Assembly: GCA_963931495.1 (NCBI GenBank)
Contig: OZ007020.1
Span: forward strand, 60,001-92,000
Origin: an uncultured Alphaproteobacteria bacterium
GTDB lineage: Bacteria > Pseudomonadota > Alphaproteobacteria > Rs-D84
Reading direction: 5' to 3'
Length of the DNA: 32,000 bases
In this document: piece by piece, positions 1-25,150 of the stretch
Position numbering within the stretch: the stretch's first letter is position 1
How the letters are laid out: each line of letters starts with the position of its first letter
The notes under the pieces: model-generated
What the model was told of the DNA's origin: nothing
Seen by the model: the letters and a program-made list of their open reading frames with translations, nothing else
The model's database searches: none
Made by a program: the position numbers and the translations under genes

Positions 1-507
1 TGGTAATATTATACCAAACGGCAAACTTAACGACAGTTCTGGTATATACAGCGGAAATGTGCGGTTAATTAAATATGCCAAGATGATGACACACACACCT
101 TCCAGTGCCAAACGTGCCGCCGGCGACAGTCCATTTGATGCCTTGTGCGATTGGGATGATATTTTTTTATAATCATCGGCAAATCCGATTGCCCCAAACA
201 TCAACAATGACAACAGCGCAATCCATCCTGTGGGATTTGAAATCGGCATAAATAAAATACTGGGGATAATAATCGCAATGATTATCAGCAATCCGCCCAT
301 GCTGGGGGTGCCGGCCTTTTTTTTATGTTCAGCCGGAACATTTTCACTGATTGGTTGGCCCCTTTTTTGCCACCGATGCATTAAATTAATAAAAGGCCGA
401 CCGAACGCCAGCATTATTAAAAACGCAACGCCAAATGCCGCCGCAAATTGTGTCCAACCACTGGCAAAAAAAGTCGCACCACTGTCAAGAAATAACGAAG
501 TCAGCAT
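1..507 (-). CDS. mraY: Phospho-N-acetylmuramoyl-pentapeptide transferase MraY, N-terminal 169 codons (gene runs off the window start)
   Basis: Absent from the ORF track because it is edge-truncated. Manual reverse translation from the ATG at 507-505 gives MLTSLFLDSGATFF...GRPFINLMHRWQKRGQPISENVPAEHKKKAGTPSMGGLLIIIAI...GAIGFADDYKKISSQSHKASNGLS. The KAGTPxMGG and FxDDYxK motifs are typical of MraY. Confidence 0.85.
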   Translation of the reverse strand, partial: MLTSLFLDSGATFFASGWTQFAAAFGVAFLIMLAFGRPFINLMHRWQKRGQPISENVPAEHKKKAGTPSMGGLLIIIAIIIPSILFMPISNPTGWIALLSLLMFGAIGFADDYKKISSQSHKASNGLSPAARLALEGVCVIILAYLINRTFPLYIPELSLSLPFGIILP

Positions 508-568
508 TCTCAATTCCTTTGATTTAATTATACTGACATTCTATCACAGAAATCACGCAAAACAAAAA

Positions 569-862
569 CTATTTAACAGTACAATATATCGGCATGCCAT
601 CATCAAAAAACAGCATCCAATCCGAACCCTTGTTCCACAACGTCACATCTGTGCCATTTAATGTACCAACGTAACGCACCCCGGATGCGGATATCGCCAA
701 ATCCAGTGTCATCTTGGTCCCATCCAGATTAACATCCAAATGTTCACCATCCCCAGACAAATTTATACCAACGTCATGACTGTCACACTGCAAATTAAAT
801 TCATACATATCACATGCAGATACAACGAACATCGCACACAGACAAACCAGAATATTACGCAT
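569..862 (-). CDS. mliC: MliC-family lipoprotein (membrane-bound inhibitor of C-type lysozyme)
   Basis: 97 aa. Lipoprotein signal MRNILVCLCAMFVVSAC. The segment LAISASGVRYVGT...VTLWNKGSDWMLF matches the E. coli MliC core as I recall it (GISASGARYTDG...FWSKGDEATV). Confidence 0.7.
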   Translation of the reverse strand: MRNILVCLCAMFVVSACDMYEFNLQCDSHDVGINLSGDGEHLDVNLDGTKMTLDLAISASGVRYVGTLNGTDVTLWNKGSDWMLFFDDGMPIYCTVK

Positions 863-889
863 ATTTCCCCCCCATATTTGATTCCAGAA

Positions 890-2938
890 CTAAAACACAC
901 CGCCAACCGCCGGTCCAGACTGGCGTGCCGCCCGCTGTGGTGCCGGATTTGGATGTTGACCAGGCTTGAACGCTTCGGTAATAATCATGCCATTCGGGTC
1001 GTCTGATGCCGCCGCACCGGTGCGCCGATTGACACGAACAAACGTTAATCCATCTGGGATGGCAAACGGTTGATTTGTTTCATTTGCCAACGCAACACGC
1101 ATAAAATCAGCAAAAACACGGGCGGCCATATGACTGCCACTGCCGGGGCCAAGTGGCTTTGGGGTATCAAACCCTAAATAAACCCCCGCGATTAAATTCT
1201 TGGAAAATCCGACGAACCATACGTCTTTGACATCATTCGTGGTGCCTGTTTTTCCCGCAATTGTGTGGCCATATACACGTGCCTGTTTGCCGGTACCGCG
1301 TTCAACCGCCCCCTGTAAGATTGATACCATTTGATATAAACTTTGTGCATCTGACAATGGTTGGGATTCAGCAACACGTTCAGGTGGCAACAAATCTTCG
1401 TGCCATTCAATCAATTCTGTGACATTACCGCCAATGGCATGGCCATATCTGTCTTCTATATAATCCACCATTTTCGGCTGTATCGCGCGACCACCATTTA
1501 CAAATGCCGAATACCCAGTAACCAGCCGTTGCAACGTTGTTTCACCCGACCCCAATGCCAAAGACAAGTTAACATCGGCCAAATCATCTGGATATACCCC
1601 AAAACGCTGGGCCACTTCTATGGCGTTTTCAACCCCCAGTTGTTGAACCATGCGAACCGCCGGAATATTTCGTGATGTTTCAACCGCCAAACGCAGCGGT
1701 ATATCCCCCATAAATTTACGGTCATAATTTTCTGGTTTCCATAAACTGTTGTCCGCACGCAGTCCGACAATTGGGGCATCTAATATTAACGCTTCGGGTG
1801 ATATGTCACGTTCCAACGCCGCCAAGTAAACGAACGGCTTAATCGTACTGCCGATTTGGCGCATTGCCTGGGTTGCGCGGTTAAATGCACTGTCGGCAAA
1901 CGAACGCCCGCCCGACATCGCGACAATTCGCCCTGTATGCGGGTTCATGGCAATTATTGCGCCCTGTAACTTTGGTTCATCAGGCCCCAGTTTCGCATTA
2001 TATGCATCCAGTTCTTTGTTTAACGCCGCACTGGCCGCGTGTTGCAGTTCTGGGACAATTGTTGTTTTAATATACAACCCTTCGTTATACAGGGTTTCAC
2101 GCCCCAATGTATTCAGTAATTGCCGGCGCACTTCTTCGGCAAAATACTGGAAATCTTCTTCCATTTGTGCGGTAAAGCCACTGTTGATATTTAATGGTTC
2201 CGCCGCCGCGGCATCCGCCGCAGATTGGGTAATATATCCTTCTTCAACCATGCGACGCAGAACATAATTGCGGCGTTCAATCGCCATGTCGCGATTATTT
2301 GGCGCCTTGGGCAGTGATGCCAAAAACGCACATTCTGCCAATGTTAATTCAGATACAGGCTTGTTAAAATACATCAATGCCGCCGAACCAACACCATACG
2401 CACGCGCGCCCAAGAATATCTGGTTCAAATACAAGGTCATTATATGCTGTTTTGAAAACGTACGTTCCAGTCGCATGGCCAAAATAGCCTCTTTGATTTT
2501 GCGCGAAATCGTACGTTCAGGTGTTAAAAAGAAATTCTTTGCAACCTGTTGCGTGATGGTTGACGCCCCAGAAAAACGCGTATTAAATCCCAACATATTT
2601 AACGTATTGTTTACAACCGCACGCGCAATTCCCTGGACATCAATTCCGGGATGCGTCCAGAAATTTTGATCTTCGGCGGCAACAAATGCATTTACCAACT
2701 GGGGCGGTAAATCATTAAAATCAATAAAAACACGGCGTTCTTCGGCGTATTCAATCAGCAAACTGCCATCCGATGCATACAAACGTGTCGCAACCGGCGG
2801 CGCATAGGTCGCCAATTTTTTATAATCTGGCAAATCATTGCCATATATGAACACCAATACCGCCAACGCAGCAATTCCAATCGTAAAGCCCCAAAACAAG
2901 ATATTTAAGCAAATGCGCAGTACTTTTTTCAGTGTCAT
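890..2938 (-). CDS. mrcA: Class A penicillin-binding protein (PBP1A; transglycosylase + transpeptidase)
   Basis: 682 aa with an N-terminal TM anchor. GT51 motifs AAEDQNFWTHPGID and STITQQ. Transpeptidase motifs STIKPF (SxxK), SRN and KTGTT. Confidence 0.93.
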   Translation of the reverse strand: MTLKKVLRICLNILFWGFTIGIAALAVLVFIYGNDLPDYKKLATYAPPVATRLYASDGSLLIEYAEERRVFIDFNDLPPQLVNAFVAAEDQNFWTHPGIDVQGIARAVVNNTLNMLGFNTRFSGASTITQQVAKNFFLTPERTISRKIKEAILAMRLERTFSKQHIMTLYLNQIFLGARAYGVGSAALMYFNKPVSELTLAECAFLASLPKAPNNRDMAIERRNYVLRRMVEEGYITQSAADAAAAEPLNINSGFTAQMEEDFQYFAEEVRRQLLNTLGRETLYNEGLYIKTTIVPELQHAASAALNKELDAYNAKLGPDEPKLQGAIIAMNPHTGRIVAMSGGRSFADSAFNRATQAMRQIGSTIKPFVYLAALERDISPEALILDAPIVGLRADNSLWKPENYDRKFMGDIPLRLAVETSRNIPAVRMVQQLGVENAIEVAQRFGVYPDDLADVNLSLALGSGETTLQRLVTGYSAFVNGGRAIQPKMVDYIEDRYGHAIGGNVTELIEWHEDLLPPERVAESQPLSDAQSLYQMVSILQGAVERGTGKQARVYGHTIAGKTGTTNDVKDVWFVGFSKNLIAGVYLGFDTPKPLGPGSGSHMAARVFADFMRVALANETNQPFAIPDGLTFVRVNRRTGAAASDDPNGMIITEAFKPGQHPNPAPQRAARQSGPAVGGVF

Positions 2939-4835: not shown

Positions 4836-6125
4836 TTATTTTTTTAATGATTCGTACCATTTCTTGGCATTTGCCCACACTTTATTTATGTCTTTTTTGG
4901 CTGTTTCATAGAAAGTTTGCGGTATTTCAACCTGGCTGAACAAAGTTTTTACTAATGCCGGTATCATTGTCATAAACATCGCGACAAATATTCCCATCAG
5001 CAGAATCGTTATTATACTGTCATTACGCATCATCAATCCGTCCATCAGCAATGTTGCATCGTTTTGTGCCAATGCCGCCGCCAATCTGTCAGCACCATGC
5101 CAGCGACCAAACACTGCATTCAAAAACATTACGGCAAATGTTATAAACACCCCAACCAGCGCAATTCCCAATGTAGATTTTATAACATCATCTATGATAC
5201 TGCGTATATTACGCCCACCGTTTGGGAAAATCGGCCAGCCTTTGAACAGCCACGACAGCAGCATTAATGGCAACATTATTAAATCCATAGACAATTTTAT
5301 AAAAACTTCCAGAAAATATAACGGAACGGGCAACAGCGCCATGAAAAACAGTACCAGTATTAATAACCCAGCAAAGAAAATCGGTACATTCGGAAATATT
5401 GGTATTACCCACATAATCTTGTGCATATATTCTTCATTAAACGCCATATTCAGCATAGTCCATCCGACCGTCATCCCCAGCCCAGTCATTTGATGTACAT
5501 TGGCAATTTCACATGCCAAACTGTGGCGCAAGTTCGGCGAAAACGCCCCAGATGACGCCGCATCAACGCTGGCCGATGTTGGGTCCGCCAACGCCGTCGC
5601 AACCATGCATTCGGCAAATTCATCATTTCCTGCGACGACACGATTTAACGACAGTCCGACATTAAATATTGGTTCAATAACAACACTGGTCAACAGCCGT
5701 GGTAATGGCGCCATCAGCAACGCACCAACAAAGCACAATTTTATCAGTTGCGTGCCAAAATTACCCGTCAGCGCCCATGGATCTTCTAATTTTGCGTTAA
5801 TAAATCCAGAAAACAATTTCCACGCAAACCAAACCGCCAATAATATCGCCGCAAATGGTAAAATAACCGTGCCAATTGCACTGTACACACGTGGTAACAG
5901 TCCACCCATTGTTGCCATAACATCAGAAAACATTTGGCACGACCAACATGTTGAAAAGAAATCCAGCGCATCAGACATATTAACCGGTGCCACGGTACGA
6001 TATATTGAAAAACCGGCAATTACACCAACGCCGGCAATTGCCCCAACAACAAATGGCGCAACAGCCCCCGCCGAAAATGGCAGAAAAGATAAAAAAATTA
6101 TCCAGAATTTTTTTAGTCTGTTCAT
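4836..6125 (-). CDS. Polytopic membrane protein, paralog 1 of 5 (tentatively TrbL/VirB6-like)
   Basis: ORF track gives 4836..6203. I trimmed it to the ATG at 6125 (MNRLKKFWIIFLSFLPFSAGA...), which has a signal-like N-terminus and a -10 box 8 nt upstream. 429 aa with at least 8 hydrophobic segments. Contains a CWSC motif and a loop Cys pair (ECMV...ACEI). The block LLILVLFFMALLPVPLYF...LPLMLLSWLFKGW is present. Lys-rich tail AKKDINKVWANAKKWYESLKK. Confidence 0.85.
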   Translation of the reverse strand: MNRLKKFWIIFLSFLPFSAGAVAPFVVGAIAGVGVIAGFSIYRTVAPVNMSDALDFFSTCWSCQMFSDVMATMGGLLPRVYSAIGTVILPFAAILLAVWFAWKLFSGFINAKLEDPWALTGNFGTQLIKLCFVGALLMAPLPRLLTSVVIEPIFNVGLSLNRVVAGNDEFAECMVATALADPTSASVDAASSGAFSPNLRHSLACEIANVHQMTGLGMTVGWTMLNMAFNEEYMHKIMWVIPIFPNVPIFFAGLLILVLFFMALLPVPLYFLEVFIKLSMDLIMLPLMLLSWLFKGWPIFPNGGRNIRSIIDDVIKSTLGIALVGVFITFAVMFLNAVFGRWHGADRLAAALAQNDATLLMDGLMMRNDSIITILLMGIFVAMFMTMIPALVKTLFSQVEIPQTFYETAKKDINKVWANAKKWYESLKK

Positions 6126-6194
6126 TGTTTTTAAGTATATCATATTTTGCATTAAATGTGATATAATTGAAAAGATAAAATTAATGTTGGGGGG
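6126..6194. promoter_or_regulatory. 69-bp divergent promoter region between paralog 1 (-) and paralog 2 (+)
   Basis: Minus strand: TGATATACT (-10 at 6134-6139), then 8 nt to the ATG at 6125. Plus strand: TGATATAAT (-10 at 6162-6167), then a ~27-nt leader ending in GGGGGG directly before the ATG at 6195. Confidence 0.5.
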
Positions 6195-7490
6195 ATGAAT
6201 CAATTAAAGTCAAAAATCTTGGCGATTATAACGCGCATAATTCCAGTGATTGTATGCGTCGCTGTGTTTTGCACATCATCCAGTGCGTATGCCGCCGATT
6301 ATTCATTGGTTGATTCACTGAATCTGGCCCCGTTTATCCCAATAATCCTGGATGCATTGATGGCCATTGCAACCGGTGGTTATGAATTTTTTGTCGGCAA
6401 CGGCGATGGTATTATTTATATCTTGGTTTGGGGATTCTTGGCCATATCATTGGCGGGATATTTATTAAAACTGTATTTTCCGAAAACATTTTCATCCATG
6501 CTGGATATTTCTGGTGGGGAATCTATGTCAGATGGCGTCGGTGGCATGACAATCGCAACAAATATGTTAAAGCCCACCATACGCGCAATTATCGCAGCGG
6601 TTGTATTATTGCAATTAAAGCCGATATATCTGACCGAATGGCTGGTTAACCCGTTTTTGCAGTTCGGCGCAATCTATACCGAAAGTATACTGGACACATT
6701 AAACGACACTGGAATTTCCGCCCCAGACGTTGAATGCCCGCCATCAGTTATTCAACAAGGATGGATTTCACAATCCAGTTGTGAATTTTTGGTGCAACCT
6801 GTGGCAGATATATCACACGCAAATAACCAGGTGATTAAACGCGGATTTGATTTCTTGACCAATGGGTTGCGCGGGATGTTAACCCTGATTCCGCACGGCG
6901 GTGAAAATCTGTTGAACGTGGTTACAGGACTGGTTTTAATCTTCACATTTGTGGCCAGCAATTTGTTTATGGCGATGCTGATTATCCAGGCGATATTTAA
7001 CTTTGGCATGGCGCTGGTGCTGTATCCATTCCAGGTCCTGGCATACGTGGCAAAACGCAGTGATAAATGGTTTGATATCTGGCCGGCGTTTGGCGGTATT
7101 ATCAAGGCACTGCAAAAACTGGTCATAACAATGATTGCATGTGCGTTTATATTGTGTGTAAATGTTGCGATTATAAAATCGTTGTTTCAATGGAGTTCAT
7201 CGGTATTCGTCGTTGCCGCCGGCGGGGTTGCGACATCTAATGTCCCCCAGGTTGCAAACACTGCGTTGGGATTCGGCCAACATTCGTTATTGTGGATGTC
7301 GTCAATACTAACGTTCTATTTGATGATGAAGATATTTAATTTAACACGTGAAAAATTGAATGAATATGTTGGTGCCGGGATGGACAACATGTACAACACG
7401 GTAAAGAAAGACACAACAAAATTGGTTAATAAAACAAAAGATTTTGGTAAAACAATTGGTAAAGCAATCGGGTGGATTAAAAAGAAATGA
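6195..7490 (+). CDS. Polytopic membrane protein, paralog 2 of 5 (tentatively TrbL/VirB6-like)
   Basis: 431 aa. Signal peptide ...VCVAVFCTSSSAYA/AD. Loop Cys pair (ECPP...SCEF). TM block LIFTFVASNLFMAMLIIQAIFNFGMALVLYPFQVLAYVAKRSDKW. Tail VKKDTTKLVNKTKDFGKTIGKAIGWIKKK. The stop overlaps the next start (ATGA at 7487-7490). Confidence 0.88.
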   Translation: MNQLKSKILAIITRIIPVIVCVAVFCTSSSAYAADYSLVDSLNLAPFIPIILDALMAIATGGYEFFVGNGDGIIYILVWGFLAISLAGYLLKLYFPKTFSSMLDISGGESMSDGVGGMTIATNMLKPTIRAIIAAVVLLQLKPIYLTEWLVNPFLQFGAIYTESILDTLNDTGISAPDVECPPSVIQQGWISQSSCEFLVQPVADISHANNQVIKRGFDFLTNGLRGMLTLIPHGGENLLNVVTGLVLIFTFVASNLFMAMLIIQAIFNFGMALVLYPFQVLAYVAKRSDKWFDIWPAFGGIIKALQKLVITMIACAFILCVNVAIIKSLFQWSSSVFVVAAGGVATSNVPQVANTALGFGQHSLLWMSSILTFYLMMKIFNLTREKLNEYVGAGMDNMYNTVKKDTTKLVNKTKDFGKTIGKAIGWIKKK

Positions 7491-8695
7491 ACGAATTTAT
7501 GAATTCTTTGGTTGATTCATCCGTACAGTGCTGGGGCTGTCCGGTGTTTGACCGGCTGTTCCAGATTGTGTCTGATGCGGCCGGGGCCGTGTATAATCAA
7601 TTTGTAATATTCTGTGCGATTATATTCTGTGTATTGTTCGCATTTTTCGTGATAAATGCCGTGTGGAAAAATATCAAGGGCGGCGTCGGTGACCCGTGGT
7701 ATCAGAAATCTGTTAAGCCTGTGATCATAAATTCACTGGTATCGTTGACTTTTTTAAGCATGGGGGTTTATCTGCCGCGGTTTGTGACAACAATTACTTT
7801 TGAACCCGTCGCAGATTTAGCATTAATATATACACAGAGTATGTTGCAAACAGATTCTGAAACACTAAATGAAAAAGTAACATATCAACCAATGAAAATG
7901 TCTGATGATGGTTTCTATCGCCCGCAACTGCGCGATAAAATCATTATGCTGATGAAGACAACAATAACCCAATTCCAATCGTATATGAAACTGGGGATTG
8001 CGGTTATGGATGGGGCATTTTCAATACGCGCATTATTGGGCATCGGCAATTTAATTAAGCATATTATACTGTTCTTTGTCGGGTTGTATTTATTTTATGG
8101 GTTCTTTAAGTTATTTGTACGGTTCTGTTTTTACTTTGCCGATATAATTGTCGCGATGACATTTTTTGCATTCTTTTTCCCATTGTCCCTGATTCTGATG
8201 GCGTTCAAGGGCGCAGATAATGTCCCACAATGGATTTCTGGACTGGGGCGCGGTATCGGCGTTGGGGAATTCAAACGATTAATTAACGCAATTATTACAC
8301 TGGCGGCCGCGGTGTTAACATACAGTGTTATAATGACAATTATTGCAAAATTCTTTGCCGCCCCGGGACAATCAGCCGCGGAAATAATGGAACTGATAAC
8401 CAGCGGAAATATATTTGCGACAGATTTATCGTTTGATAATCTGGAAAATATAACACTGGTATCATGCATAATACTGGTGTACGTGTTAAATTTCATATAT
8501 GCACAAATCCCCAGCATTACAAATATGGTACTGGGGACATTCGGCGTCAAAGAAGAAAACAAATTAAGTGAACAATTGGCTGATGATGCAATGGCATTAA
8601 CTAAAAATATCGCAAACGTTGCGAAAACAGTTGGAAAAAATATCATCAGTGGTGGCGAAACAAAAACAGACGGCGCAAAAAAGGACGGTAAATGA
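7487..8695 (+). CDS. Polytopic membrane protein, paralog 3 of 5 (tentatively TrbL/VirB6-like)
   Basis: 402 aa. N-terminal CWGC motif followed by FDRLFQIV, then a TM segment. About 7 hydrophobic segments. Block FFAFFFPLSLILMAFKGADNVPQW. Tail ...AKTVGKNIISGGETKTDGAKKDGK. ATGA overlap with the next gene at 8692-8695. Confidence 0.88.
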   Translation: MNEFMNSLVDSSVQCWGCPVFDRLFQIVSDAAGAVYNQFVIFCAIIFCVLFAFFVINAVWKNIKGGVGDPWYQKSVKPVIINSLVSLTFLSMGVYLPRFVTTITFEPVADLALIYTQSMLQTDSETLNEKVTYQPMKMSDDGFYRPQLRDKIIMLMKTTITQFQSYMKLGIAVMDGAFSIRALLGIGNLIKHIILFFVGLYLFYGFFKLFVRFCFYFADIIVAMTFFAFFFPLSLILMAFKGADNVPQWISGLGRGIGVGEFKRLINAIITLAAAVLTYSVIMTIIAKFFAAPGQSAAEIMELITSGNIFATDLSFDNLENITLVSCIILVYVLNFIYAQIPSITNMVLGTFGVKEENKLSEQLADDAMALTKNIANVAKTVGKNIISGGETKTDGAKKDGK

Positions 8696-10128
8696 AATCA
8701 GGTATGATTGCAATTATCATACGATTTTTAATGGGCGCAATTGCGTTGGGGATTGGCATATGGTACCTGTCTTCATCAATCAGTGGGGCAGCAATTACGT
8801 ATACCAGCATGGATGGTTTTCTGGGTGCAATTGGTGTGACAAACGGTGATATTGCAACCGCAAATGGGTGCTTTTTATGTAAATATATCGCCGAATTATT
8901 TGGTGTCATCGGGCGGGCGGCTGAATTATTCTGGACCGCAATGGTTGATAATATATGGATATTATTGGCCATCGGATTTGGAATATTTTTGTTTGTTTAT
9001 ACGGCCCAATATATATCGGATGCCGCAAAAAAAACACAAACACTGGATACAAATGAAAAAAAACTGGAACTGGCGGGATGGTTTGACAAAGTATGGCGCC
9101 AGGGCGCACGTGTGCTGATTGTCGGCGTGCTGATGGGCGCATTGGGCATGGGCGGAACCGCCGCATTAAAAACAGTGGCAAATATAACCATAACACCGGT
9201 GCTGTTTGTCGGCGCAGAATTATCAATGGCCGCCACCGGCGTGTCAGACGCAGCAACATGTGGCGCATTGACCACCACAGGTAAAAATGACGACATCTTG
9301 AACCCAATATTGCAGCCTTTTATGTGCGTAATGGGAAATATAAACAGTGTGATGCTGGCCGGGGCCGCAGGTGGATTTTCACTGATGAACTATGCATGGA
9401 TGGATATGGGTGGCGGTGCATTGACATGGGTTGCTGGATTGGCACTGGTGCTGATGTTTCTGGTAATTGGTTTTGACTTGGTTTTTCAAGTGCTGTCGGT
9501 TGTATTCAAATTGGTGTTTCTGATTATATTCTTGCCGTTGCTGTTGGCGGCGGCGGCGTTTGAACAAACGTGGTCGTTGGCCAGTGGCGTGGTAAAAAAT
9601 GCAATTAATATGCTGGTCAAAACAGCAATCCAAGTTGTGGGTATTACATTGAAGACATTAATAATATACGCAACTGTATCATTCGCCGCAGACACATATT
9701 TCCCCGGACCGCGTGATGGATACAGTGCGATATTACCCCCCATGATGGGCGCAGAAATTCAAAATCCAGACGCCCAAACAATGGCGGTCGTAAACGTATT
9801 TTCAACATGCGAACAGGTTGCCACCGCCAATGGCGAAATGGATAAAGATGTATTCAAAAATTGCTTTACCGCGCAACGCGCGGCGGTGGAACGCGAATAT
9901 CCCGGCGCATTTGATTTTATGGGTAACGCATGGGAATTCTTGTTAATTATGATTGGGTTGTTCTGTTTATATTTATATATCATAAAACCAAAAATTGATG
10001 GAATACTAAACGTTGGGGGCAAAGAAAGTTTTGACTTTGGAAACTGGGCAAAAGATTTAGGTAAAAAAATCTGGCATGCACCACAACAAATATTTGAAAC
10101 AATATCCAAGGCGGTCGGGAAAAAGTAA
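8692..10128 (+). CDS. Polytopic membrane protein, paralog 4 of 5 (tentatively TrbL/VirB6-like)
   Basis: 478 aa. CFLC motif. Loop Cys pair (TCGA...MCVM). The block LIIFLPLLLAAAAFEQTWSLASGVVKNAINMLVKTAI resembles the TrbL segment I recall (IPFGLFGKTAFMAERVLGNVISSGIKVLVL). Tail AKDLGKKIWHAPQQIFETISKAVGKK. Confidence 0.88.
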   Translation: MKSGMIAIIIRFLMGAIALGIGIWYLSSSISGAAITYTSMDGFLGAIGVTNGDIATANGCFLCKYIAELFGVIGRAAELFWTAMVDNIWILLAIGFGIFLFVYTAQYISDAAKKTQTLDTNEKKLELAGWFDKVWRQGARVLIVGVLMGALGMGGTAALKTVANITITPVLFVGAELSMAATGVSDAATCGALTTTGKNDDILNPILQPFMCVMGNINSVMLAGAAGGFSLMNYAWMDMGGGALTWVAGLALVLMFLVIGFDLVFQVLSVVFKLVFLIIFLPLLLAAAAFEQTWSLASGVVKNAINMLVKTAIQVVGITLKTLIIYATVSFAADTYFPGPRDGYSAILPPMMGAEIQNPDAQTMAVVNVFSTCEQVATANGEMDKDVFKNCFTAQRAAVEREYPGAFDFMGNAWEFLLIMIGLFCLYLYIIKPKIDGILNVGGKESFDFGNWAKDLGKKIWHAPQQIFETISKAVGKK

Positions 10129-10134
10129 TCTGTG

Positions 10135-11418
10135 ATGAAAAAACTGAAACGCATCTTTATAAAACTTCTGGTACTTATCGTCATGGTGGTGATGATGGGC
10201 CCGGCGGGTGCGGCCACCGCAAATGTCCCGATGTCGGAAATTGGCGATTATGGAACATGGGCCACAGACAGTAACATGGGGCTGTTCACAACAAATCTGA
10301 AAGACGATATAACGGCGTTTGAACAATCATCCACAGAAAAAACACTGGTGCCCGATTATGTACCCATAGAGGCGAAAATTGGACTGGCATTAATGAACGG
10401 ATTATCGCTGGTGGGGGAAGTTTTAGACAATTCGCTGGTACGATTTGTAATAATATTTTTAATTGTTGCGTACATATTCTGGGTGATGTTTGAAGCATAC
10501 AACATGATGACCAAGGGTTCCAGTGCAATGGAATTGGGCGTTAACCTGGTCAAAAAAGGTGCTGTTCTGGCAATATGGATTATCATCTTGGCATTTGGCC
10601 CAGCCCAGGTTTTTATGTGGGTAATGGGGCCGATTATCGGTGTTGCAACATATTTATCTGACCTGATATTAAACGCGGTTACAAATGTTATCGGCGTTCA
10701 ATTACCCGATACGTGTGCGGCGATACATCAATATGCTGCGACACATACGTCGCCCAACATGATTATTAATTCCGACGCCGCCGCAGATATGATGTGCCTG
10801 CCGACACGGCTGTCTGGATTTTTCGTAACAGCGGTTGCCACCGGATGGCAATGGGTTGTTAATGGCATTGGGACCAGTGCTTTTACTGTATTGGTTGGAA
10901 TTGCATTTATTGTAATATTTATCTATAACGCATTTAAGTTTGCGTTTATGGGACTGGGGGTTATTGTTGATTTATTCTTGGCTGTGCTGCTGTTACCATT
11001 CACGGCAATCAGTGAAACGATTGGCAAAACATCATACAAGGGTATCGCCGGTGATATATTTAACGGATTCCTGGGATTATTCAAAACAGAAACACTGAAC
11101 CGACAGATTGAACGTTTTATTAATGCGGCTGTTTATTTTGTATCATTGTCTGTTGTAATTGCCATATGTGCGGCCCTGTTATCTGGGACAGTCAGTTTGA
11201 ATAACGCAACAGACATACCAACATTAGAAAACAATGGATTTATTGTAACATTATTAACGGGATGCCTGGTTGCATACTTGGCATCGCGCGCCGACAGTAT
11301 TGCCAAAGATAACTTTGGCGGCAAAATTGACGCCAGTTTTGGTACAAATTTATCCAAAGACGCAAAAAAACTGTGGGACGACACAAAAAAATTCTTTAAC
11401 AAACTGGGTAAAAAATAA
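10135..11418 (+). CDS. Polytopic membrane protein, paralog 5 of 5 (tentatively TrbL/VirB6-like)
   Basis: ORF track starts at GTG 10132; I prefer the ATG at 10135. 427 aa. Signal peptide MKKLKRIFIKLLVLIVMVVMMGPAGA/AT. Loop Cys pair (TCAA...MCLP). Block DLFLAVLLLPFTAISETIGKTSYKG. Tail SKDAKKLWDDTKKFFNKLGKK. Confidence 0.87.
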   Translation: MKKLKRIFIKLLVLIVMVVMMGPAGAATANVPMSEIGDYGTWATDSNMGLFTTNLKDDITAFEQSSTEKTLVPDYVPIEAKIGLALMNGLSLVGEVLDNSLVRFVIIFLIVAYIFWVMFEAYNMMTKGSSAMELGVNLVKKGAVLAIWIIILAFGPAQVFMWVMGPIIGVATYLSDLILNAVTNVIGVQLPDTCAAIHQYAATHTSPNMIINSDAAADMMCLPTRLSGFFVTAVATGWQWVVNGIGTSAFTVLVGIAFIVIFIYNAFKFAFMGLGVIVDLFLAVLLLPFTAISETIGKTSYKGIAGDIFNGFLGLFKTETLNRQIERFINAAVYFVSLSVVIAICAALLSGTVSLNNATDIPTLENNGFIVTLLTGCLVAYLASRADSIAKDNFGGKIDASFGTNLSKDAKKLWDDTKKFFNKLGKK

Positions 11419-13606: not shown

Positions 13607-14284
13607 ATGGGACGCGTTATTTGTTTTGACATTGAAACCACAGGCTTGGAATACACGCGCGGGGACCGCTGTATTGAAATTGGCGCAGTTGAAATGATTG
13701 ATGGTCAAATCACAGATAATACGTTTCATGAATACATAAACCCAGATGGGAAAATTATTCCGCCCGATTCGTACATGGTGCACAAAATATCAAATGCATT
13801 CTTGGAAGATAAACCCAAAATGGCAACAGTTGCACCAAAGTTCTTGGATTTCATCGGCACCAGTCCGATTGTTGCGCATAATGGCGCTGATTTTGACTTT
13901 CCGTTTATCAATCACGAATTACAGATGATTGGACTGCCCCAAATTCCGCGCAGTCAACAAATGGATTCAATCATTATCGCACGCAATCGTGTATTTGGCC
14001 CCAAGAGTTATTCATTAGACGCATTGGCCAAGTGGTATGGAATATCCCTGACCGCGCGTGCCGATGCACACGGCGCGTTAATTGACGCAGAAATTCTGGC
14101 CAAGGTGTATAAAGAACTGGAAAACACCGCACCGGCCCCAGATGTGCACGAAATAATTGAAAAACAGCATGCCGATTTTTTGAAACATCCAAAAATCGGC
14201 ACAAACTTTCCACATCGGCAATTTCCGGCCCACCCCGATGAAATCGCACACCACAATGAATTCATAGAAAAAATTACGGCGTAA
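13607..14284 (+). CDS. dnaQ: DNA polymerase III epsilon subunit (3'-5' proofreading exonuclease)
   Basis: 225 aa. Exo motifs RVICFDIETTGL, VAHNGADFDFPFINHEL and HGALIDAEILAKVY. SD GGAAGGG upstream of the ATG. Confidence 0.92.
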   Translation: MGRVICFDIETTGLEYTRGDRCIEIGAVEMIDGQITDNTFHEYINPDGKIIPPDSYMVHKISNAFLEDKPKMATVAPKFLDFIGTSPIVAHNGADFDFPFINHELQMIGLPQIPRSQQMDSIIIARNRVFGPKSYSLDALAKWYGISLTARADAHGALIDAEILAKVYKELENTAPAPDVHEIIEKQHADFLKHPKIGTNFPHRQFPAHPDEIAHHNEFIEKITA

Positions 14285-14293
14285 AATACGCCG
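14275..14293. terminator. Bidirectional hairpin between convergent dnaQ and the 716-aa gene
   Basis: ACGGCGTA-aaa-TACGCCGT, an 8-bp perfect stem, with the dnaQ TAA stop inside the stem/loop. The next gene's stop follows 2 nt later. Confidence 0.5.
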
Positions 14294-14294
14294 T

Positions 14295-16445
14295 TTATTT
14301 ACATGTCTTGGATCCAACATCAAATGTTTTATCGTCCGGACACAACAATGACTGGTAAAACATTTGTGATATATTGGTTATACATGCATCAGCAGTGCTG
14401 CATGAGTTCGTTTTGTCATTTGCAAATACAGCGTATGCGCACGTCAATGCCACGTTATAGCATGCGCCACGCATAACGTTATATATACTGCCAATATCTG
14501 CATTTGAAGACCATGCATTAACCTGGGTCACCTGTTGGTTATAGCAATTTGCAACATCAACCATGCATTCAGATGCGTAATCTGATATTATCTGTTGCTG
14601 GGCCGCGCGTATATTTACCAAGGCACGCTGGATATAGTTCACAACAACATCATTGTATTGGTTGTATTTATTACCATCATCACTGTCGGTATATGTGTAC
14701 ATCTGGCATTTATCCAGTACCGGCCGACACAGACCGCCATCTGTGACCTCTTCCCCCATACCGATTTTCTGCATTAAATATTTTACGACGCTGGACCCGT
14801 TTGTGTCAGCTGCGTCATCAGCGGATCCTGTGACCGCGTTTTTTATAAAGTCGGCATTTATGGCGGAATTATCATATGTACTCATATTCGTCAATATTGT
14901 ACTGATATCTTGCCCCAATACCACTTCGCCGTTTTCATCAATGTATTTTTTGCTGGGGTCCAGGCATTTTTCATAATCAGAACCACACACCATGTCATCC
15001 GTCATACATGTTTCCAGCGCACCAATGCATCCGCGTATATCATACTGATTTTTGTTCTGGACAACCGCCAATCGCGCCTTTTGTAACATCAGATTTGCAC
15101 TGCGCACATTGGATTTTAATGTTTCGTTCATCTTTTCCAATCCCTGTTCATACGCAATACAATCCTTGTCAATTGCCAAATCGTAATTACCACTGATTTG
15201 ATCAATGTTTGCGCCGGCTTCCTTGCACTGGTTCAACACTGTCTTGCAACGACTTTTGGCCGCATTATACAGCGCCGTACCCCGCAGGTTAGATAAACTG
15301 GTCGTGCCCATATTCAAAAAGTCCAGACTGAACAAATCACTCATATCCGATGAAAAATCTATGTTCATGTCCAGTCCCGTATAACCACTGCTGGCGGTAT
15401 ATGATGTGCCACCGGTGGGGTCCATAATTAATTCTTCTATTTCTTCCAGCATATTGCGGTTTGCCGTGTTATCACGCGCGCCGGCCAGTGCCTCTTCTGC
15501 TTCTGTTGCATTCATGATTGCGCGTATTTCATCCGCCGACAGGCCAACATAGCGAATTTGTTGTGCAACCTCATTCAACTGGGTATTGGCATCGGTTACG
15601 GCTTCTTCTACTTCGGCATAATTAGATAAGTTTGCAGAACAAGAACAACGTCCCTGGTTAGAATCAATAACCGCACAGAATTGATCCATACAATCATTAT
15701 ACTGTTGTTGGCATGATGCGTTTAATTCCGCCGTCTGTTCCAATGTTGCCTTGGCCGCCGCGATTGATTCCGCCGTCGTTTCTGTTCCCGCGTTTGTCGT
15801 CGCGCGCGATTGGACGGCGCGTGCCTCGGTCGCGATATTAGAACCAGTCTGGATATCTGTGCCCGCGATTGTGGCACGACCGCCAACCTCGGCCGTGGTT
15901 GGTCGTAATGTTACACCCGCACGACGCACCACAGGATTACTGTTTATACTGGCCGATTCAACACGTGCGTTGCGCCCAACTGTGTTAACCGTCGCTTCTA
16001 AATTTTCACGCGCAGAATTTGTTTTTGTCGCACTGACCGAACGCGACACCGGTGCCGTCCGCGTATTGCCAGACCCACGTGATGTCGTTCCCGGCGCATC
16101 ATCGCCCATATTCAAAACGCGCGAACCAACACGCACAACCGATGTATCAGAAACCGATGTACCAGATGACGCGTCGCGATTTACAACACTGCGCACCGTA
16201 CCAGATTCAGTTTTTGTATCCCCAGATTCACGTGGTGATGCATCAGATACCACGTTCGCCGTTCGCACAACCGACGGCATAACCGCGGCACGTGATACAT
16301 TTGTCGCCCCCGCCGTGCGGCCAGATTGCGCCCCCGTATTACCGGCACCAGATGTCGGCAACACGCGTGATATTGTTGTATCCGCCAACGCAAATGGCGC
16401 AGTCATAACAACCGTCATAAAAAAACAAAAGGACGTTTTTTTCAT
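14295..16445 (-). CDS. Secreted protein, 716 aa: disordered Arg/Ser/Thr/Gly-rich N-terminal half plus Cys-rich (Cx6C) C-terminal half; no family recognised
   Basis: Signal peptide MKKTSFCFFMTVVMTAPFALA/DT. About 230 aa of low complexity with almost no Lys. This is followed by ~460 aa with many Cys, including CQQQYNDC, CKTVLNQC, CIGALETC, CRPVLDKC, CMVDVANC and CYNVALTC. Confidence 0.88.
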   Translation of the reverse strand: MKKTSFCFFMTVVMTAPFALADTTISRVLPTSGAGNTGAQSGRTAGATNVSRAAVMPSVVRTANVVSDASPRESGDTKTESGTVRSVVNRDASSGTSVSDTSVVRVGSRVLNMGDDAPGTTSRGSGNTRTAPVSRSVSATKTNSARENLEATVNTVGRNARVESASINSNPVVRRAGVTLRPTTAEVGGRATIAGTDIQTGSNIATEARAVQSRATTNAGTETTAESIAAAKATLEQTAELNASCQQQYNDCMDQFCAVIDSNQGRCSCSANLSNYAEVEEAVTDANTQLNEVAQQIRYVGLSADEIRAIMNATEAEEALAGARDNTANRNMLEEIEELIMDPTGGTSYTASSGYTGLDMNIDFSSDMSDLFSLDFLNMGTTSLSNLRGTALYNAAKSRCKTVLNQCKEAGANIDQISGNYDLAIDKDCIAYEQGLEKMNETLKSNVRSANLMLQKARLAVVQNKNQYDIRGCIGALETCMTDDMVCGSDYEKCLDPSKKYIDENGEVVLGQDISTILTNMSTYDNSAINADFIKNAVTGSADDAADTNGSSVVKYLMQKIGMGEEVTDGGLCRPVLDKCQMYTYTDSDDGNKYNQYNDVVVNYIQRALVNIRAAQQQIISDYASECMVDVANCYNQQVTQVNAWSSNADIGSIYNVMRGACYNVALTCAYAVFANDKTNSCSTADACITNISQMFYQSLLCPDDKTFDVGSKTCK

Positions 16446-16497
16446 ATTTTTATTAGTATATTATATCACAACAATACAAAACAGAAAAGATGAAATA

Positions 16498-16524
16498 TGT
16501 AAAAAAACGGGGCAATGCCCCGTT
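16498..16524 (-). terminator. Rho-independent terminator of rplU-rpmA
   Basis: Minus strand: ACGGGGCA/TGCCCCGT stem followed by TTTTTTT, 3 nt after the rpmA stop. Confidence 0.7.
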
Positions 16525-16526
16525 TA

Positions 16527-16793
16527 TTATTTTGCGTCACTTTCTGGGATAACAGAAACTGTTTTCCGATCACCCAAACCACGCTTGAACGTTACAATGC
16601 CTGCGATTTTTGCAAACAGTGTATGATCCTTGCCCATACCAACATTCAGACCCGGATGAACCGATGTTCCACGCTGACGAATAATGATGTTACCCGGGAT
16701 AACACGACTGCCCCCAGATTTTTTAACACCCAAACGACGCCCCTCGGAATCGCGTCCGTTGGCGGTTGATGTACCTGCTTTCTTATGTGCCAT
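16527..16793 (-). CDS. rpmA: 50S ribosomal protein L27
   Basis: 88 aa: [24 protein letters not shown]... Confidence 0.95.
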
Positions 16794-17278: not shown

Positions 17279-18163
17279 TCACTGATAATATGCGTTTGAT
17301 GTGCAAGCCCAACTGCCGGTGGTGTCACTGCCGGTGCTGTACGAAGACGGAACATAGCATTTTGATACGGAAACTTCACCTGTGGGACCACTGGTGCCAC
17401 CGACACCGATATTGCCACCATACACCGCATCACCGGGATTGGCCGTCGTTTGGGTCCCAGACGAATGCGACGGGCACGGTGTACAATATTGTGATGGTTT
17501 TGCAGATGCACCTATTCCGCTTGTTTTGGGGGTTCCATAATAGCCCTTGGGGCAACGAATTTGTTTGGTCAGATTTGTCACACACTTATTACCACTGCAA
17601 CTGCGAAACGTACGCATTTGAATTGCATTACTGCCGCTGTATAAAGTTTCCCATTCGTCCGGCACGCATGTTGATTCATCACATGAACCAGACGGCGATG
17701 TCGTTTTGTTATACAGGCATTTATAGAATATCAATGTTGACGGACATCCGCGGATTTCAAATGTCTTGCGGGTGTAGTTCGTTTTGCAACCTGTTGCGGA
17801 TTTTGCGTAATATTTTATACCATCAATATCAAAACATACATTTGTGGTACCCGTGGCCCCAGAATCACCCAACACAGATGCAGACGAACCCGTATCTTGC
17901 CATTCGGTGCGACTGGAAATATCGGTACATCCCGCAGATATACACAACGCAAATCCGCCGCCACCACCACCGGCACCACCAGTACTATCTTCACACTGAA
18001 CACAGCAACTGGCGCCTTCCCAACTGCCGCATTCTATGCAGTTATGGATACATCTGTCGTCAGAAAAACTGATATCGCCACCCGAAGAACTGGCCGCGTT
18101 TGCATATTGGGCACACATGGTTAACATAATCGCCGAAAGCAAACCACCGTTTGGATTCGGCAA
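17279..18163 (-). CDS. Cys-rich putative secreted protein, 294 aa (about 22 Cys, Gly run, growth-factor-receptor/furin-like Cys spacing)
   Basis: Long ORF with a TTG start at 18163 giving a weak signal peptide, ...GLLSAIMLTMCAQYANA/ASS; the start is uncertain (next ATG at 18127). Contains GGAGGGGGG and RCPKGYYGTPK...QYCTPCPSHSSG. Confidence 0.75.
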   Translation of the reverse strand: MPNPNGGLLSAIMLTMCAQYANAASSSGGDISFSDDRCIHNCIECGSWEGASCCVQCEDSTGGAGGGGGGFALCISAGCTDISSRTEWQDTGSSASVLGDSGATGTTNVCFDIDGIKYYAKSATGCKTNYTRKTFEIRGCPSTLIFYKCLYNKTTSPSGSCDESTCVPDEWETLYSGSNAIQMRTFRSCSGNKCVTNLTKQIRCPKGYYGTPKTSGIGASAKPSQYCTPCPSHSSGTQTTANPGDAVYGGNIGVGGTSGPTGEVSVSKCYVPSSYSTGSDTTGSWACTSNAYYQ

Positions 18164-23218: not shown

Positions 23219-23677
23219 TTAGATTCGCGTGTTTTCCATAACATTACGGATGCAAGACACGACCTTTTTATCCATATACAACTGGTACAGTGTATCAACC
23301 GCCAAATTAGTGCACGCATCGGCCACAGACAAATATAATCTGTTACAAATCCATCCTGTTTCACCACAGTCAAATTTTACATTGTACCATGCCACACGAT
23401 TAACTTTTATGCCAGGGGCCTCGGTCGGGGTGGCGCGTTTTTGATATGACATATTATACGGAACAGAACTGTTCGCCGCGGTTTGTAATTGAACTTCGCG
23501 CAGTACCAATGGCCGCCCATTTAATGTTTGATGCGCCCAGAAATTTTTTGCCTGGGCAAAATAAAAACGCGCCATATTCAAATTAGTTTGCGGATATCCA
23601 CGATAGTACTTGTTGCCACGTGCATCATTAGAATATACCCCAGAATCATTAACTGTAATCACTTTATTTTCATTCAT
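23219..23677 (-). CDS. Hypothetical protein, 152 aa (orphan operon gene 5)
   Basis: ATG start 17 nt after the upstream stop. No recognisable domain. Confidence 0.7.
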   Translation of the reverse strand: MNENKVITVNDSGVYSNDARGNKYYRGYPQTNLNMARFYFAQAKNFWAHQTLNGRPLVLREVQLQTAANSSVPYNMSYQKRATPTEAPGIKVNRVAWYNVKFDCGETGWICNRLYLSVADACTNLAVDTLYQLYMDKKVVSCIRNVMENTRI

Positions 23678-23694
23678 ATTTTCATACCCTTTTA

Positions 23695-24372
23695 TTACTT
23701 TGTCCGTTGTTTATTACATTGCAAACGACTTATATGCGGCAATATATGTTGCGAATATATGCCAAAAAATAAATCTTCGGCACGTGCGTATAATCTTGGC
23801 ACTGATTTATCATTAATACAAATAACTTTTTCACCAATTTCCAGAATGTAACGCCGTTCTTTTTCATCTGCGGGTATGTGACATAACGCAACATTACCAC
23901 AGTATATCTTGAACATATACCCAACGCGCGTAATCACAATACCATCAGATTGACAACGACGCTTGTCCGCCGCGCGGTTATCTTTTATTATAACAATGTT
24001 AAACGGGTTATGCAGCCCACGACGAATACGTTCCAACGCAAACCAAGAACAAATGTCATCATCAGAGAAACAGTCCAGATACTTGTTATGTGTGATTTTA
24101 TCTGAAAACTGCTGGATAGCCGCCCGAATGCGATTACGCCGATTGGCAATTTTATATACACGATGCATCAAGCGATATGTCCCCACAGACAGTAATGGAT
24201 CATCTGATAAATTAATACGTGCACCCGATACCGTCAACGAAACATTCGTATAGAACGGATTATCGGGCATAATCACTATATCATTTATAAAAATTTTTCC
24301 GTCCTTGATAACCGCGTTACGCGCATCACGCATGCCACGACGCAAAGATTTCTGGACATCAGCACCATTCAT
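23695..24372 (-). CDS. Hypothetical protein, 225 aa (orphan operon gene 4)
   Basis: ORF track gives 23695..24546. I trimmed it to the ATG at 24372 (MNGADVQKSLRRG...), preceded by GGGG 7 nt upstream and a candidate TTGACA-N16-TAAAAT promoter. Confidence 0.65.
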   Translation of the reverse strand: MNGADVQKSLRRGMRDARNAVIKDGKIFINDIVIMPDNPFYTNVSLTVSGARINLSDDPLLSVGTYRLMHRVYKIANRRNRIRAAIQQFSDKITHNKYLDCFSDDDICSWFALERIRRGLHNPFNIVIIKDNRAADKRRCQSDGIVITRVGYMFKIYCGNVALCHIPADEKERRYILEIGEKVICINDKSVPRLYARAEDLFFGIYSQHILPHISRLQCNKQRTK

Positions 24373-24428
24373 AATAACCCCATTTATCAACAGGAATATT
24401 TTATACAAATAATATTGTTTGTCAATAT

Positions 24429-24794
24429 TTATCTTGACCGTTTCATACAAGATTCGCGAAACATCTGCCAAAACGCCGGCCCACCAAATTCCTGTGGGCA
24501 ATTTTTCGGGCTGCATGCCCAGCGACGCACTGGATTTGCCGCGCACATACGCGCAGGCACGCGGTTATGCAATTTATCAATGCATGCACGATATTCATCT
24601 ATGGCTTGTTCTAAATCATAATAAATGTATGCCCGTGATTCATACTGACACGAACCAGGGGTATAAAATTGCTTCATCACAACAGAAAAAACATCGCCCT
24701 GTTCAAAGATTTTTGCATTATAATTATAAATCCCATTATCTTTGAACATACAAACTTCGCCATTTTTATCAGAATATTTTGCATATATTTTCAT
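24429..24794 (-). CDS. Hypothetical protein, 121 aa (orphan operon gene 3)
   Basis: ORF track gives 24429..24863. I trimmed it to the ATG at 24794 (MKIYAKYSDKNGEV...), with GGGGG about 7 nt upstream. Confidence 0.65.
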   Translation of the reverse strand: MKIYAKYSDKNGEVCMFKDNGIYNYNAKIFEQGDVFSVVMKQFYTPGSCQYESRAYIYYDLEQAIDEYRACIDKLHNRVPARMCAANPVRRWACSPKNCPQEFGGPAFWQMFRESCMKRSR

Positions 24795-24808: not shown

Positions 24809-25150
24809 TCATTTCATACAGAATATCAAATAAATAAAAGATCGCAATAAAAGTCTGCCACAATGGCCAAAACTATTTTTTAATTTATGTGCGGTTATAA
24901 CGGTATTGCTGTGGGCGTTTGTGGTCAGGACAAAATCAGACCCATATATATAATAATTTTTGCCGCGCCGAATAACAGAATCTGGCAATGTGGCCGCCAC
25001 CACCGCACGAGGCCCCGCAACAACATCATCTGTTTCCAGATTCAAATTACGCTTTATGCGTAACGCCCCCAATCCCGCCGCGTGTAAAGATTGTACCGAA
25101 TTTTTCATCCATCCCAAAATACAAAGAAATCTGATACCGCGCAAAGTCAC
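24809..25150 (-). CDS. Hypothetical protein, 113 aa (orphan operon gene 2); weak DUF4258-like pattern
   Basis: The GTG start overlaps the upstream stop (GTGA at 25147-25150). SLHAAGLGALRIKRNLNLETDDVV...GKNYYIYGSDFVLTTNAHSNTVITAHKL loosely follows HA..R..eRgi....v......r..y......vv......vITvy. An alternative ATG start lies at 25108. Confidence 0.55.
   Translation of the reverse strand: MTLRGIRFLCILGWMKNSVQSLHAAGLGALRIKRNLNLETDDVVAGPRAVVAATLPDSVIRRGKNYYIYGSDFVLTTNAHSNTVITAHKLKNSFGHCGRLLLRSFIYLIFCMK

Follow-up and report, generated by a model that had tools for sequence, protein, structure and literature searches.

In a 32,000-nucleotide stretch of DNA from an uncultured alphaproteobacterium of the lineage Rs-D84 (assembly GCA_963931495.1, contig OZ007020.1, positions 60,001 to 92,000; hereafter the window), a gene that we confirm as real and conserved encodes an exported protein of 716 amino acids. 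Behind a Sec-type signal peptide, its product combines an arginine-rich, lysine-poor tract with a predicted all-alpha module that carries 18 invariant cysteines. By sequence comparison, the protein represents a previously undescribed family that has so far been seen only in genome-reduced Alphaproteobacteria of the gut (Candidatus Enterousia/order Rs-D84), and which falls within the familiar general class of secreted cysteine-rich bacterial surface or envelope proteins. We propose, at a probability of roughly 45%, that it serves as a Sec-exported envelope or surface scaffold or adhesion protein. Its parts, in window coordinates, are as follows.

14295–16445, minus strand: complete coding sequence, 716 amino acids, ATG start, stop codon at 14295–14297 (from the list of open reading frames (ORFs) and from homologs)
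16383–16445, minus strand: Sec-type signal peptide, residues 1–21 (MKKTSFCFFMTVVMTAPFALA, then D), with MKK, a hydrophobic core and ALA before the D, as read from the sequence
16026–16382, minus strand: variable arginine-rich, lysine-poor S/T/A/G/V low-complexity tract, residues 22–140, predicted disordered
15801–16025, minus strand: conserved arginine-containing segment, residues 141–215 (ARENLEATVNTVGRNARVESASINSNPVVRRAGVTLRPTTAEVGGRATIAGTDIQTGSNI), a candidate binding motif
14421–15725, minus strand: putatively cysteine-stapled all-alpha module, residues 241–675, with 18 invariant cysteines and a strongly acidic net charge
15279–15422, minus strand: acidic Gly/Ser/Asp-rich loop within the module, residues 342–389, of low confidence
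14298–14420, minus strand: short variable C-terminal tail, residues 676–716, with four non-universal cysteines (682, 688, 702 and 715)

A protein family of gut Alphaproteobacteria

Independent gene calls on six ENA contigs predict an identical 716-residue product in the same gene order. Together with over 1,000 close homologs, none of which carries a name or a Pfam domain, they confirm the ORF put forward in a preliminary description of this DNA. An exhaustive HMMER search with the cysteine-rich half returned 648 clusters at 50% identity (E ≤ 1e-3), 179 of them at E ≤ 1e-30; in the full-length matches listed, the module starts about 100–320 residues in and the proteins reach 2,338 amino acids. 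Named family members are all annotated as 'hypothetical protein', as are distant members (27–38% identity) from metagenome-assembled genomes (MAGs) of Alphaproteobacteria or Rickettsiales, which keep the architecture; one such MAG encodes two. Scanning one genome per species placed the family in at least 95 genomes, all gut MAGs ('Candidatus Enterousia', 'uncultured Alphaproteobacteria' or 'Rickettsiales bacterium'), with human, chicken, ruminant, horse, mouse and apparently termite guts as sources. Two contigs labelled 'uncultured Muribaculaceae' (L050 and L072) show the Enterousia gene order (L21-L27-homolog-DnaQ-UvrD-membrane-protein array) and are probably mis-binned.

Searches of Pfam and NCBIfam at E ≤ 10 gave noise only (Rac1-binding domain, E = 0.21; XseB, E = 0.31), and PHROGs held no match for the protein. 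A phage origin was rejected, as no relatives occur on the viral contigs of IMG/VR. Enterousia is placed in the order Rs-D84, has genomes below 1 Mb without a tricarboxylic acid cycle, respiratory chains, flagella or standard transporters, has been suggested to be partner-dependent and encodes many hypothetical membrane or surface proteins (PMC12306168).

A cysteine-rich helical module

The module opens with the signature C245-x6-C-M-D-x-F-C-x9-C-x-C and contains seven further Cx6C pairs. It thereby carries the complete family signature, C-x6-C-[M]-D-x-[FI]-C-x9-C-x-C (CQQQYNDCMDQFCAVIDSNQGRCSC at residues 245–269) followed by 13 invariant cysteines in the same order, and the protein scores 767 bits against the A-type hidden Markov model (HMM) of the family. 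The six Cx6C pairs listed in the preliminary description are all present, together with CSTADAC, and two more were found (CMTDDMVC and CGSDYEKC). The spacing does not arise by chance, with 8 pairs against 0.95 expected, an enrichment of 8-fold or more, and 0 of 100,000 shuffles reaching 8; a census of cysteine spacings counts x6 eight times, x9 once and x3 never. Distances between the pairs are irregular (130, 21, 43, 78, 46 and 27), and Cx6C pairs form the run C473-x6-C480-x6-C487-x6-C494. The 481-residue C-terminal half holds 22 cysteines, and the count in the mature protein is even (22).

The 18 cysteines of the module are invariant in 53 close homologs and 96–100% conserved in 124 divergent representatives. 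Occupancy in the tail is lower, at 23% for C682, 7% for C688, 57% for C702 and 78% for C715. A search of the 124 representatives for disulfide partners by joint loss returned C682 and C688 alone, which are gained or lost jointly, the core 18 being invariant; in a second, B-type group of paralogs (described below) the cysteine pattern is rearranged and does not show clean pair losses.

Structural analysis drew on alignments of 53 close and 95 diverse sequences and on a per-residue conservation profile. A model of the C-terminal half built from close homologs only was poor (predicted local distance difference test (pLDDT), 59.7) and gave no fold matches; an AlphaFold model with the diverse multiple sequence alignment reached pLDDT values of 80–95 at residues 390–716 and 60–90 at 230–340, with values below 50 at 1–223. 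In this model the module is almost wholly helical, with two very long helices at 414–463 and 599–642, bearing out the earlier description of this half as helix-prone; the acidic loop has pLDDT below 50 at residues 344–382 and reduced conservation at 341–360. Most Cx6C pairs lie inside a predicted helix or where one kinks, and hydrophobic residues occupy +3/+4 (CKTVLNQC, CIGALETC and CRPVLDKC), a placement that, on the model, fits cysteines at core heptad positions that would staple adjacent helices. Residues seven apart on a helix are ~10 Å from one another; a Cx6C pair therefore could not bond to itself, and each cysteine would need a partner on an adjacent element, after the manner of twin-CxnC staples.

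Mean-field direct coupling analysis (DCA) of 441 sequences (effective number, Meff, 217) revealed long-range couplings of helix 269–300 with 439–463 and of segment 482–514 with helix 599–620, as well as 306–579, 465–581 and 243–413. These couplings argue for one integrated multi-helix domain rather than a chain of independent hairpins, so that the 'disulfide-stapled helical hairpins' of the preliminary description hold as regards the helical placement of the Cx6C pairs and are not supported as regards their organization. Among cysteines, the neighbourhoods C473/480–C487/494 and C662/669–C682/688 are weakly supported. Foldseek searches with the better model brought no significant match in the PDB (best E = 0.78, TM score (TM) ≤ 0.26) or in BFVD (best E = 0.019, TM ~0.1 or lower), and profile searches of PDB sequences with the 53- and 95-sequence alignments gave nothing better than E ~1. 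This agrees with the earlier failure to assign a family, and the fold of the module, as modelled, is possibly new.

Signal peptide and arginine-rich tract

Residues 1–21 have the n/h/c layout of a Sec/signal peptidase I signal, read here from the sequence as it was before, and a hydrophobic N-terminal h-region is present in 284 of 303 full-length family members. No lipobox ([LVI][ASTVI][GAS]C) was found at the end of the signal peptide, where the sole N-terminal cysteine, C7 (TSFC), precedes the hydrophobic core; nor was a twin-arginine (Tat) motif (S/T-R-R-x-F-L-K), the n-region being MKK and the family consensus MKR/MRR-L-P-L.

Residues 25–235 consist largely of T (14.7%), A (14.2%), S (13.3%), V (11.8%), R (10.0%) and G (9.5%), and contain 21 arginines against exactly three lysines (K78, K141 and K232), the number that had been noted before; the second half, earlier called lysine-rich, has in fact 20 lysines in 481 residues (4.2%), merely above the N-terminal half. 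The bias is a family trait: in the 303 full-length members, arginine makes up a median 10% of the N-terminal tract and lysine 1%, arginine exceeds three times lysine in 96%, and net charge is +6 for the tract and −18 for the cysteine module. In the A-type family the tract before the module spans about 85–260 residues, a range that accommodates the window protein. Because the genome has a guanine plus cytosine (GC) content of 44.6% and lysine codons are AT-rich, avoidance of lysine in the tract is selected and not mutational.

The tract is not uniform. Residues 22–140 are poorly conserved (0.22–0.63, with indels; pLDDT 32–41), and residues 141–215 have column conservation of 0.81–0.91 and invariant R146, R161, R174, R175, R181 and R190. 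The view of the whole N-terminal half as low-complexity sequence is thus supported by composition and by pLDDT below 50 at residues 1–223, which are probably disordered, and is contradicted by the 81–91% conservation of residues 141–215. AlphaFold does not fold this segment confidently (pLDDT 37–45); such conservation at low pLDDT is what one typically sees where a disordered region harbours a conserved binding motif.

Variable C-terminal extensions

The window protein ends 41 residues past the module; the family has a median extension of 112 residues with 10 cysteines, and a maximum of 1,712. Close relatives append CxCxxGY-type EGF-like units, and one (P0169) about 1,650 residues of CxC repeats. 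Among 28 long members, Listeria-Bacteroides repeats occur in 7 (best E = 6.9e-41) and Ephrin_rec_like in 2, the extension modules always lying C-terminal to the cysteine module. A 99%-identical strain variant (P0001) has four substitutions, and these are confined to the variable tract and the tail. Given an invariant module and extensions confined to its C-terminal side, the arginine segment and cysteine module would form a constant scaffold and the C-terminus the variable end. The layout of a stalk followed by a head, as first described, is therefore probably reversed: the cysteine domain and part of the N-terminal half are invariant, and the variable, adhesin-type modules are C-terminal in relatives.

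A core gene with its own promoter

In most of 80 related genomes the gene order is PPDK ... L21-L27-homolog on the same strand, followed by a convergent DnaQ-like exonuclease, UvrD and four of five membrane-protein genes; more distant genomes show different, housekeeping neighbours. The gene is thus a positionally conserved core gene beside rplU-rpmA, and has its own conserved promoter. Its flanking elements are listed below.

16460–16468, minus strand: extended −10 promoter element TGATATAAT, ending 14 nucleotides (nt) before the ATG, from the sequence and a comparison of 83 loci
16505–16525, minus strand: terminator-like hairpin and T-run after rpmA, separating the ribosomal-protein genes from the 716-residue gene
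14276–14294, no single strand: bidirectional terminator-like hairpin, common to the convergent DnaQ-like exonuclease gene

In 74 of the 83 loci, TGnTATAAT precedes the start codon by 18–26 nt; in the loci examined it ends 9–17 nt before the ATG, and an ATCTTTT(C/A)TG box is conserved ~20 nt further upstream. A Shine-Dalgarno-like motif occurs in just 2 of the 83, and none at the window gene. Conservation of the extended −10 element and this near-absence of Shine-Dalgarno motifs predict a dedicated strong promoter with a very short leader, and the sequences suggest near-leaderless translation for genes of the family. An operon with L21 and L27 is unlikely, in view of the hairpin after rpmA and the conserved promoter. 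The same features speak against an effector of the accessory type, since the gene is core, syntenic in reduced genomes and under its own promoter, and not an accessory island gene.

In 54 of the 80 related genomes a B-type paralog lies on the same strand between PPDK and L21, so that A- and B-type genes flank rplU-rpmA. It encodes about 750 amino acids with 23 conserved cysteines and shares the signal peptide, the arginine tract and the C-x6-C-MD-x-x-C-x9-C-x-C opening (B-type against A-type HMM, E ~1e-22; against the window protein by BLASTP, E = 2e-9). One example is given here.

Locus L005, 5830–8091, plus strand: B-type paralog with CxESYYxCMDEICTAR...RCxC, upstream of rplU-rpmA, with equivalents in the same position at 53 other loci

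At two loci (L022 and L024) the A and B paralogs are directly tandem. The window has no B-type paralog, and no remnant of one was found in it; the slot is occupied by an unrelated Cys/Gly-rich ORF of 294 amino acids (17279–18163, minus strand). This ORF has 22 cysteines, Gly runs and CPxGYYG and CTPCP motifs, resembles ephrin-receptor/GCC2_GCC3 proteins by eye, and has no Pfam, NCBIfam or PHROG match and no relative among 82 loci. At L005 the same slot also carries a PagL-like gene and a 140-residue Cys-rich ORF.

Proposed function and alternatives

Under the scaffold or adhesion reading, the signal peptide would be removed after Sec export and the acidic all-alpha module (~241–675) would fold outside the cytoplasm as a compact multi-helix domain. 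Its 18 invariant, mostly heptad-spaced (Cx6C) cysteines would cross-link adjacent helices into a rigid, protease-resistant scaffold, with up to 9–11 disulfides locking the helical domain. The basic, lysine-poor tract could act as a flexible tether in which the conserved segment of 75 residues provides docking to an anionic component of the envelope or of a partner, and the C-terminus would display lineage-specific modules (Cys-rich EGF/ephrin-receptor-like units or Listeria-Bacteroides repeats), the window protein having a minimal 41-residue tail. Its role, in bacteria thought to be partner-dependent, would probably lie in organizing the cell surface or in attaching to a host or partner. PagL-like and TolC-like genes at related loci imply an outer membrane in the lineage.

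Several observations weigh against this proposal. The 716-residue protein has no beta-barrel, lipobox or sorting motif, and hence no feature for translocation across or anchoring in the outer membrane; a Sec signal by default delivers to the periplasm only. Respiratory chains are reported to be missing from the lineage, which makes it a question how DsbB-type oxidation would be driven, and C702–C715 is the sole cysteine pair that DCA supports, leaving no full cysteine map. No functional partner is consistently adjacent, the neighbours being housekeeping genes, and the window's own protein lacks a long adhesin-like extension. A more detailed picture is doubtful: a new disulfide-stapled all-alpha fold acting as a conserved, highly expressed surface scaffold, with two paralogs flanking rplU-rpmA, that attaches Rs-D84 to a host or partner, its arginine-only tract binding an anionic ligand and its C-terminus offering a site where diversifying adhesin repeats plug in.

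The main rival, which we consider unlikely, is a housekeeping structural protein of the periplasm or envelope that is not surface exposed, one example being a rigid strut or tether, locked by disulfides, that these reduced genomes would need for envelope integrity and that would attach through its basic tract to peptidoglycan or the outer membrane's inner leaflet. It would account well for the core-gene behaviour and conserved position beside rplU-rpmA, the strong conserved promoter, a Sec signal that comes without an outer-membrane export or anchor feature, the retention of two paralogs in genomes of about 900 genes, and an invariant core unlike that of usual exposed antigens. What sets it back is that in relatives the same scaffold bears modules of a typically extracellular kind, with as many as 1,700 added residues that are hard to fit in the periplasm, and that the tract and tail vary even between strains, as expected of exposed parts.

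We see little likelihood that the protein is instead a released effector or toxin acting on a partner or host cell, its helical domain binding or inserting in membranes and its arginine tract aiding uptake or anionic-glycan binding. It is secreted, all-helical and lineage-specific, in probably partner-dependent bacteria; arginine-rich, lysine-poor tracts bind sulfated or phosphorylated polymers well; and the top non-significant Foldseek matches include colicin Ia and Tc toxin helical shells. Those fold matches, however, are not significant (E ≥ 0.78, TM ≤ 0.26), no immunity, chaperone or secretion gene is adjacent, and the gene is core, syntenic and single-locus with an invariant core, not patchy or fast-evolving; a domain cross-linked by about nine disulfides would also be ill-suited to membrane insertion. 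The preliminary description had offered a surface adhesin or a secreted effector, of which the first is favoured by the surface modules of relatives and the second lacks support from context or fold.

Less likely again is that the invariant cysteines bind metals or perform redox chemistry, as an array of Zn/Fe sites or a thiol relay, in place of structural disulfides. A lineage without a respiratory chain for classical DsbB oxidation and the unusually large number of 18 invariant cysteines are in its favour. Yet the signal is of Sec and not Tat type, the route usually taken by cofactor-loaded proteins; CxxC, CxxCH and histidine partners are lacking, the protein having zero histidines; the helices place the cysteines at i/i+7 and hydrophobic residues at +3/+4 from them, as is typical where positions are buried and structural; and their count is even, the optional C682 and C688 being gained or lost jointly.

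Composition finally explains an ORF on the opposite strand.

15751–16626, plus strand: 291-residue antisense shadow ORF, a compositional artefact spanning the start codon, the promoter and the rpmA terminator

As had been suspected, this ORF is a by-product of the N-terminal half, with a GC content of 0.566 against 0.435 in the C-terminal half and 0.469 against 0.443 at third codon positions (GC3); the rise lies at codon positions 1 and 2 and is therefore driven by amino-acid choice, and the antisense frame has 0 stops across 235 N-terminal codons and 13 across the C-terminal half. That the 716-residue ORF is not a real protein-coding gene, or that the antisense ORF is one, can be excluded as an artefact: although the antisense ORF is long and similar ones recur at related loci, its recurrence mirrors sense-strand conservation, and its frame is open only over the biased half and overruns the promoter and rpmA terminator, whereas the sense ORF is kept full-length in hundreds of genomes with signal peptide, invariant cysteines and promoter.

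Other genes in the window and at related loci

Besides housekeeping genes, the window encodes five paralogous membrane proteins of 400–480 amino acids (4836–11418; o455 on the minus strand, o431, o402, o478 and o428 on the plus strand), each with about six predicted transmembrane segments and a lysine-rich C-terminus. Three have an N-proximal CxxC (QCWGCPVF, TCWSCQMF and GCFLCKYI). None has a Pfam or NCBIfam match even at E ≤ 10, and an assignment as VirB6/TrbL paralogs was rejected for now, with no TrbL or other match at that threshold. A comparison across genomes, which covered four of the five, showed conservation in most of the related ones. A check of linkage gave a mixed result: at two loci (L031 and L041) the array stays adjacent after rearrangement, directly upstream of the homolog on the same strand, and in about a dozen others it is absent within 10 kb. 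This gives a weak hint of a functional link between gene and array.

At L038 (14137–18065, minus strand), three proteins of 400–470 amino acids with type IV pilin-like N-termini (...GGMLVELLLSVALAAIV and ...ASITEVVLAMAIIAM) are encoded 2 kb downstream of the homolog, a hint that the lineage has a type IV filament or a system akin to type II secretion. At L082, a TolC-like OEP gene (125–1471, minus strand) is divergent from a distant homolog (P0251), and a 318-residue ATPase of T2SSE/VirB11 type (7752–8708, plus strand) is encoded 3.5 kb away, just upstream of L21-L27. The window further contains a complete 16S-23S-5S ribosomal RNA (rRNA) operon (25806–31043, minus strand) with tRNA-Ile(GAT) only in its spacer, Rfam and ARAGORN finding no tRNA-Ala, and, between a VIT-family membrane gene and this operon, ORFs of 152, 283 and 189 amino acids without a Pfam match (23219–24546 and 25147–25716, minus strand).

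Significance

Rs-D84/Enterousia bacteria, widespread in the guts of humans, livestock, rodents and termites, have genomes of ~0.8–1 Mb and are thought to be partner-dependent. This family offers a prime handle on how they interact with other cells: proteins of 716–2,300 amino acids with invariant cysteines, a strong promoter of their own and usually a second paralog, in a genome of only about 900 genes. Its lack of detectable relatives in curated families or solved structures makes a new protein fold likely. Potential uses are as a candidate attachment factor or envelope organizer, as a lineage marker, and as an antigen for fluorescence in situ hybridization or immuno-capture of uncultured cells. 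It also poses a biochemical question, namely how about 9–11 disulfides per molecule would be oxidized in a bacterium without a respiratory chain.

Comparison with known systems

We compared the protein with several cysteine-rich systems, taking the properties of the Helicobacter Hcp/Sel1-like, CHCH and OmcB families as general background. Hcp/Sel1-like proteins (HcpA-C, Legionella EnhC; PF08238) are likewise Sec-exported, all-alpha products of host-associated bacteria in which fixed-spacing cysteine pairs staple helices. Unlike them, our protein has no Sel1 match at E ≤ 10 and no 36-residue periodic repeat, its x6 spacing differs from that of Hcp, its couplings indicate an integrated domain and not a solenoid, and it adds an arginine-rich N-terminal tract. 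In CHCH proteins (twin Cx9C/Cx3C; PF06747), fixed-spacing cysteines on one helix face pair with an antiparallel helix, and by analogy the run C473-x6-C480-x6-C487-x6-C494 could form a CHCH-type twin staple. Here, however, the spacing is x6, with one x9 and no x3 pair, no Pfam match was found, and a bacterial, Sec-exported module of ~435 residues with 18 cysteines contrasts with a 40-residue domain of the mitochondrial intermembrane space.

Large, disulfide-rich and mostly helical extracellular binding domains are also found in the Plasmodium DBL adhesins (PF05424), one of which, PfEBA-175 F1 (4k2u_B), appears in the Foldseek list; its match is not significant (E = 9.3, TM 0.11/0.21), Pfam gives none, the cysteines follow an unrelated pattern and the DBL domain type is eukaryotic. 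Proteins with Listeria-Bacteroides repeats (PF09479) or ephrin-receptor-like/GCC2_GCC3 units (PF07699) share the modules found at the C-terminus of long family members; the window protein is without them, and the conserved N-terminal scaffold has no counterpart there. A type V autotransporter does not match, the C-terminal 330 residues being confidently helical in the model and without a Pfam autotransporter match.

Chlamydial OmcB (Chlam_OMP6/DUF11) is, like our protein, a cysteine-rich envelope protein of a genome-reduced, host-dependent bacterium, in which a basic N-terminal region (glycosaminoglycan-binding in OmcB) precedes a cysteine-rich body. The two differ in that no Pfam or NCBIfam match links them and that the all-alpha module of our model stands against beta-rich repeats in OmcB. 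By analogy, then, the family would come closest in working mode to the disulfide-stapled helical secreted proteins of the Hcp/Sel1-like and CHCH kinds, and in layout to OmcB.

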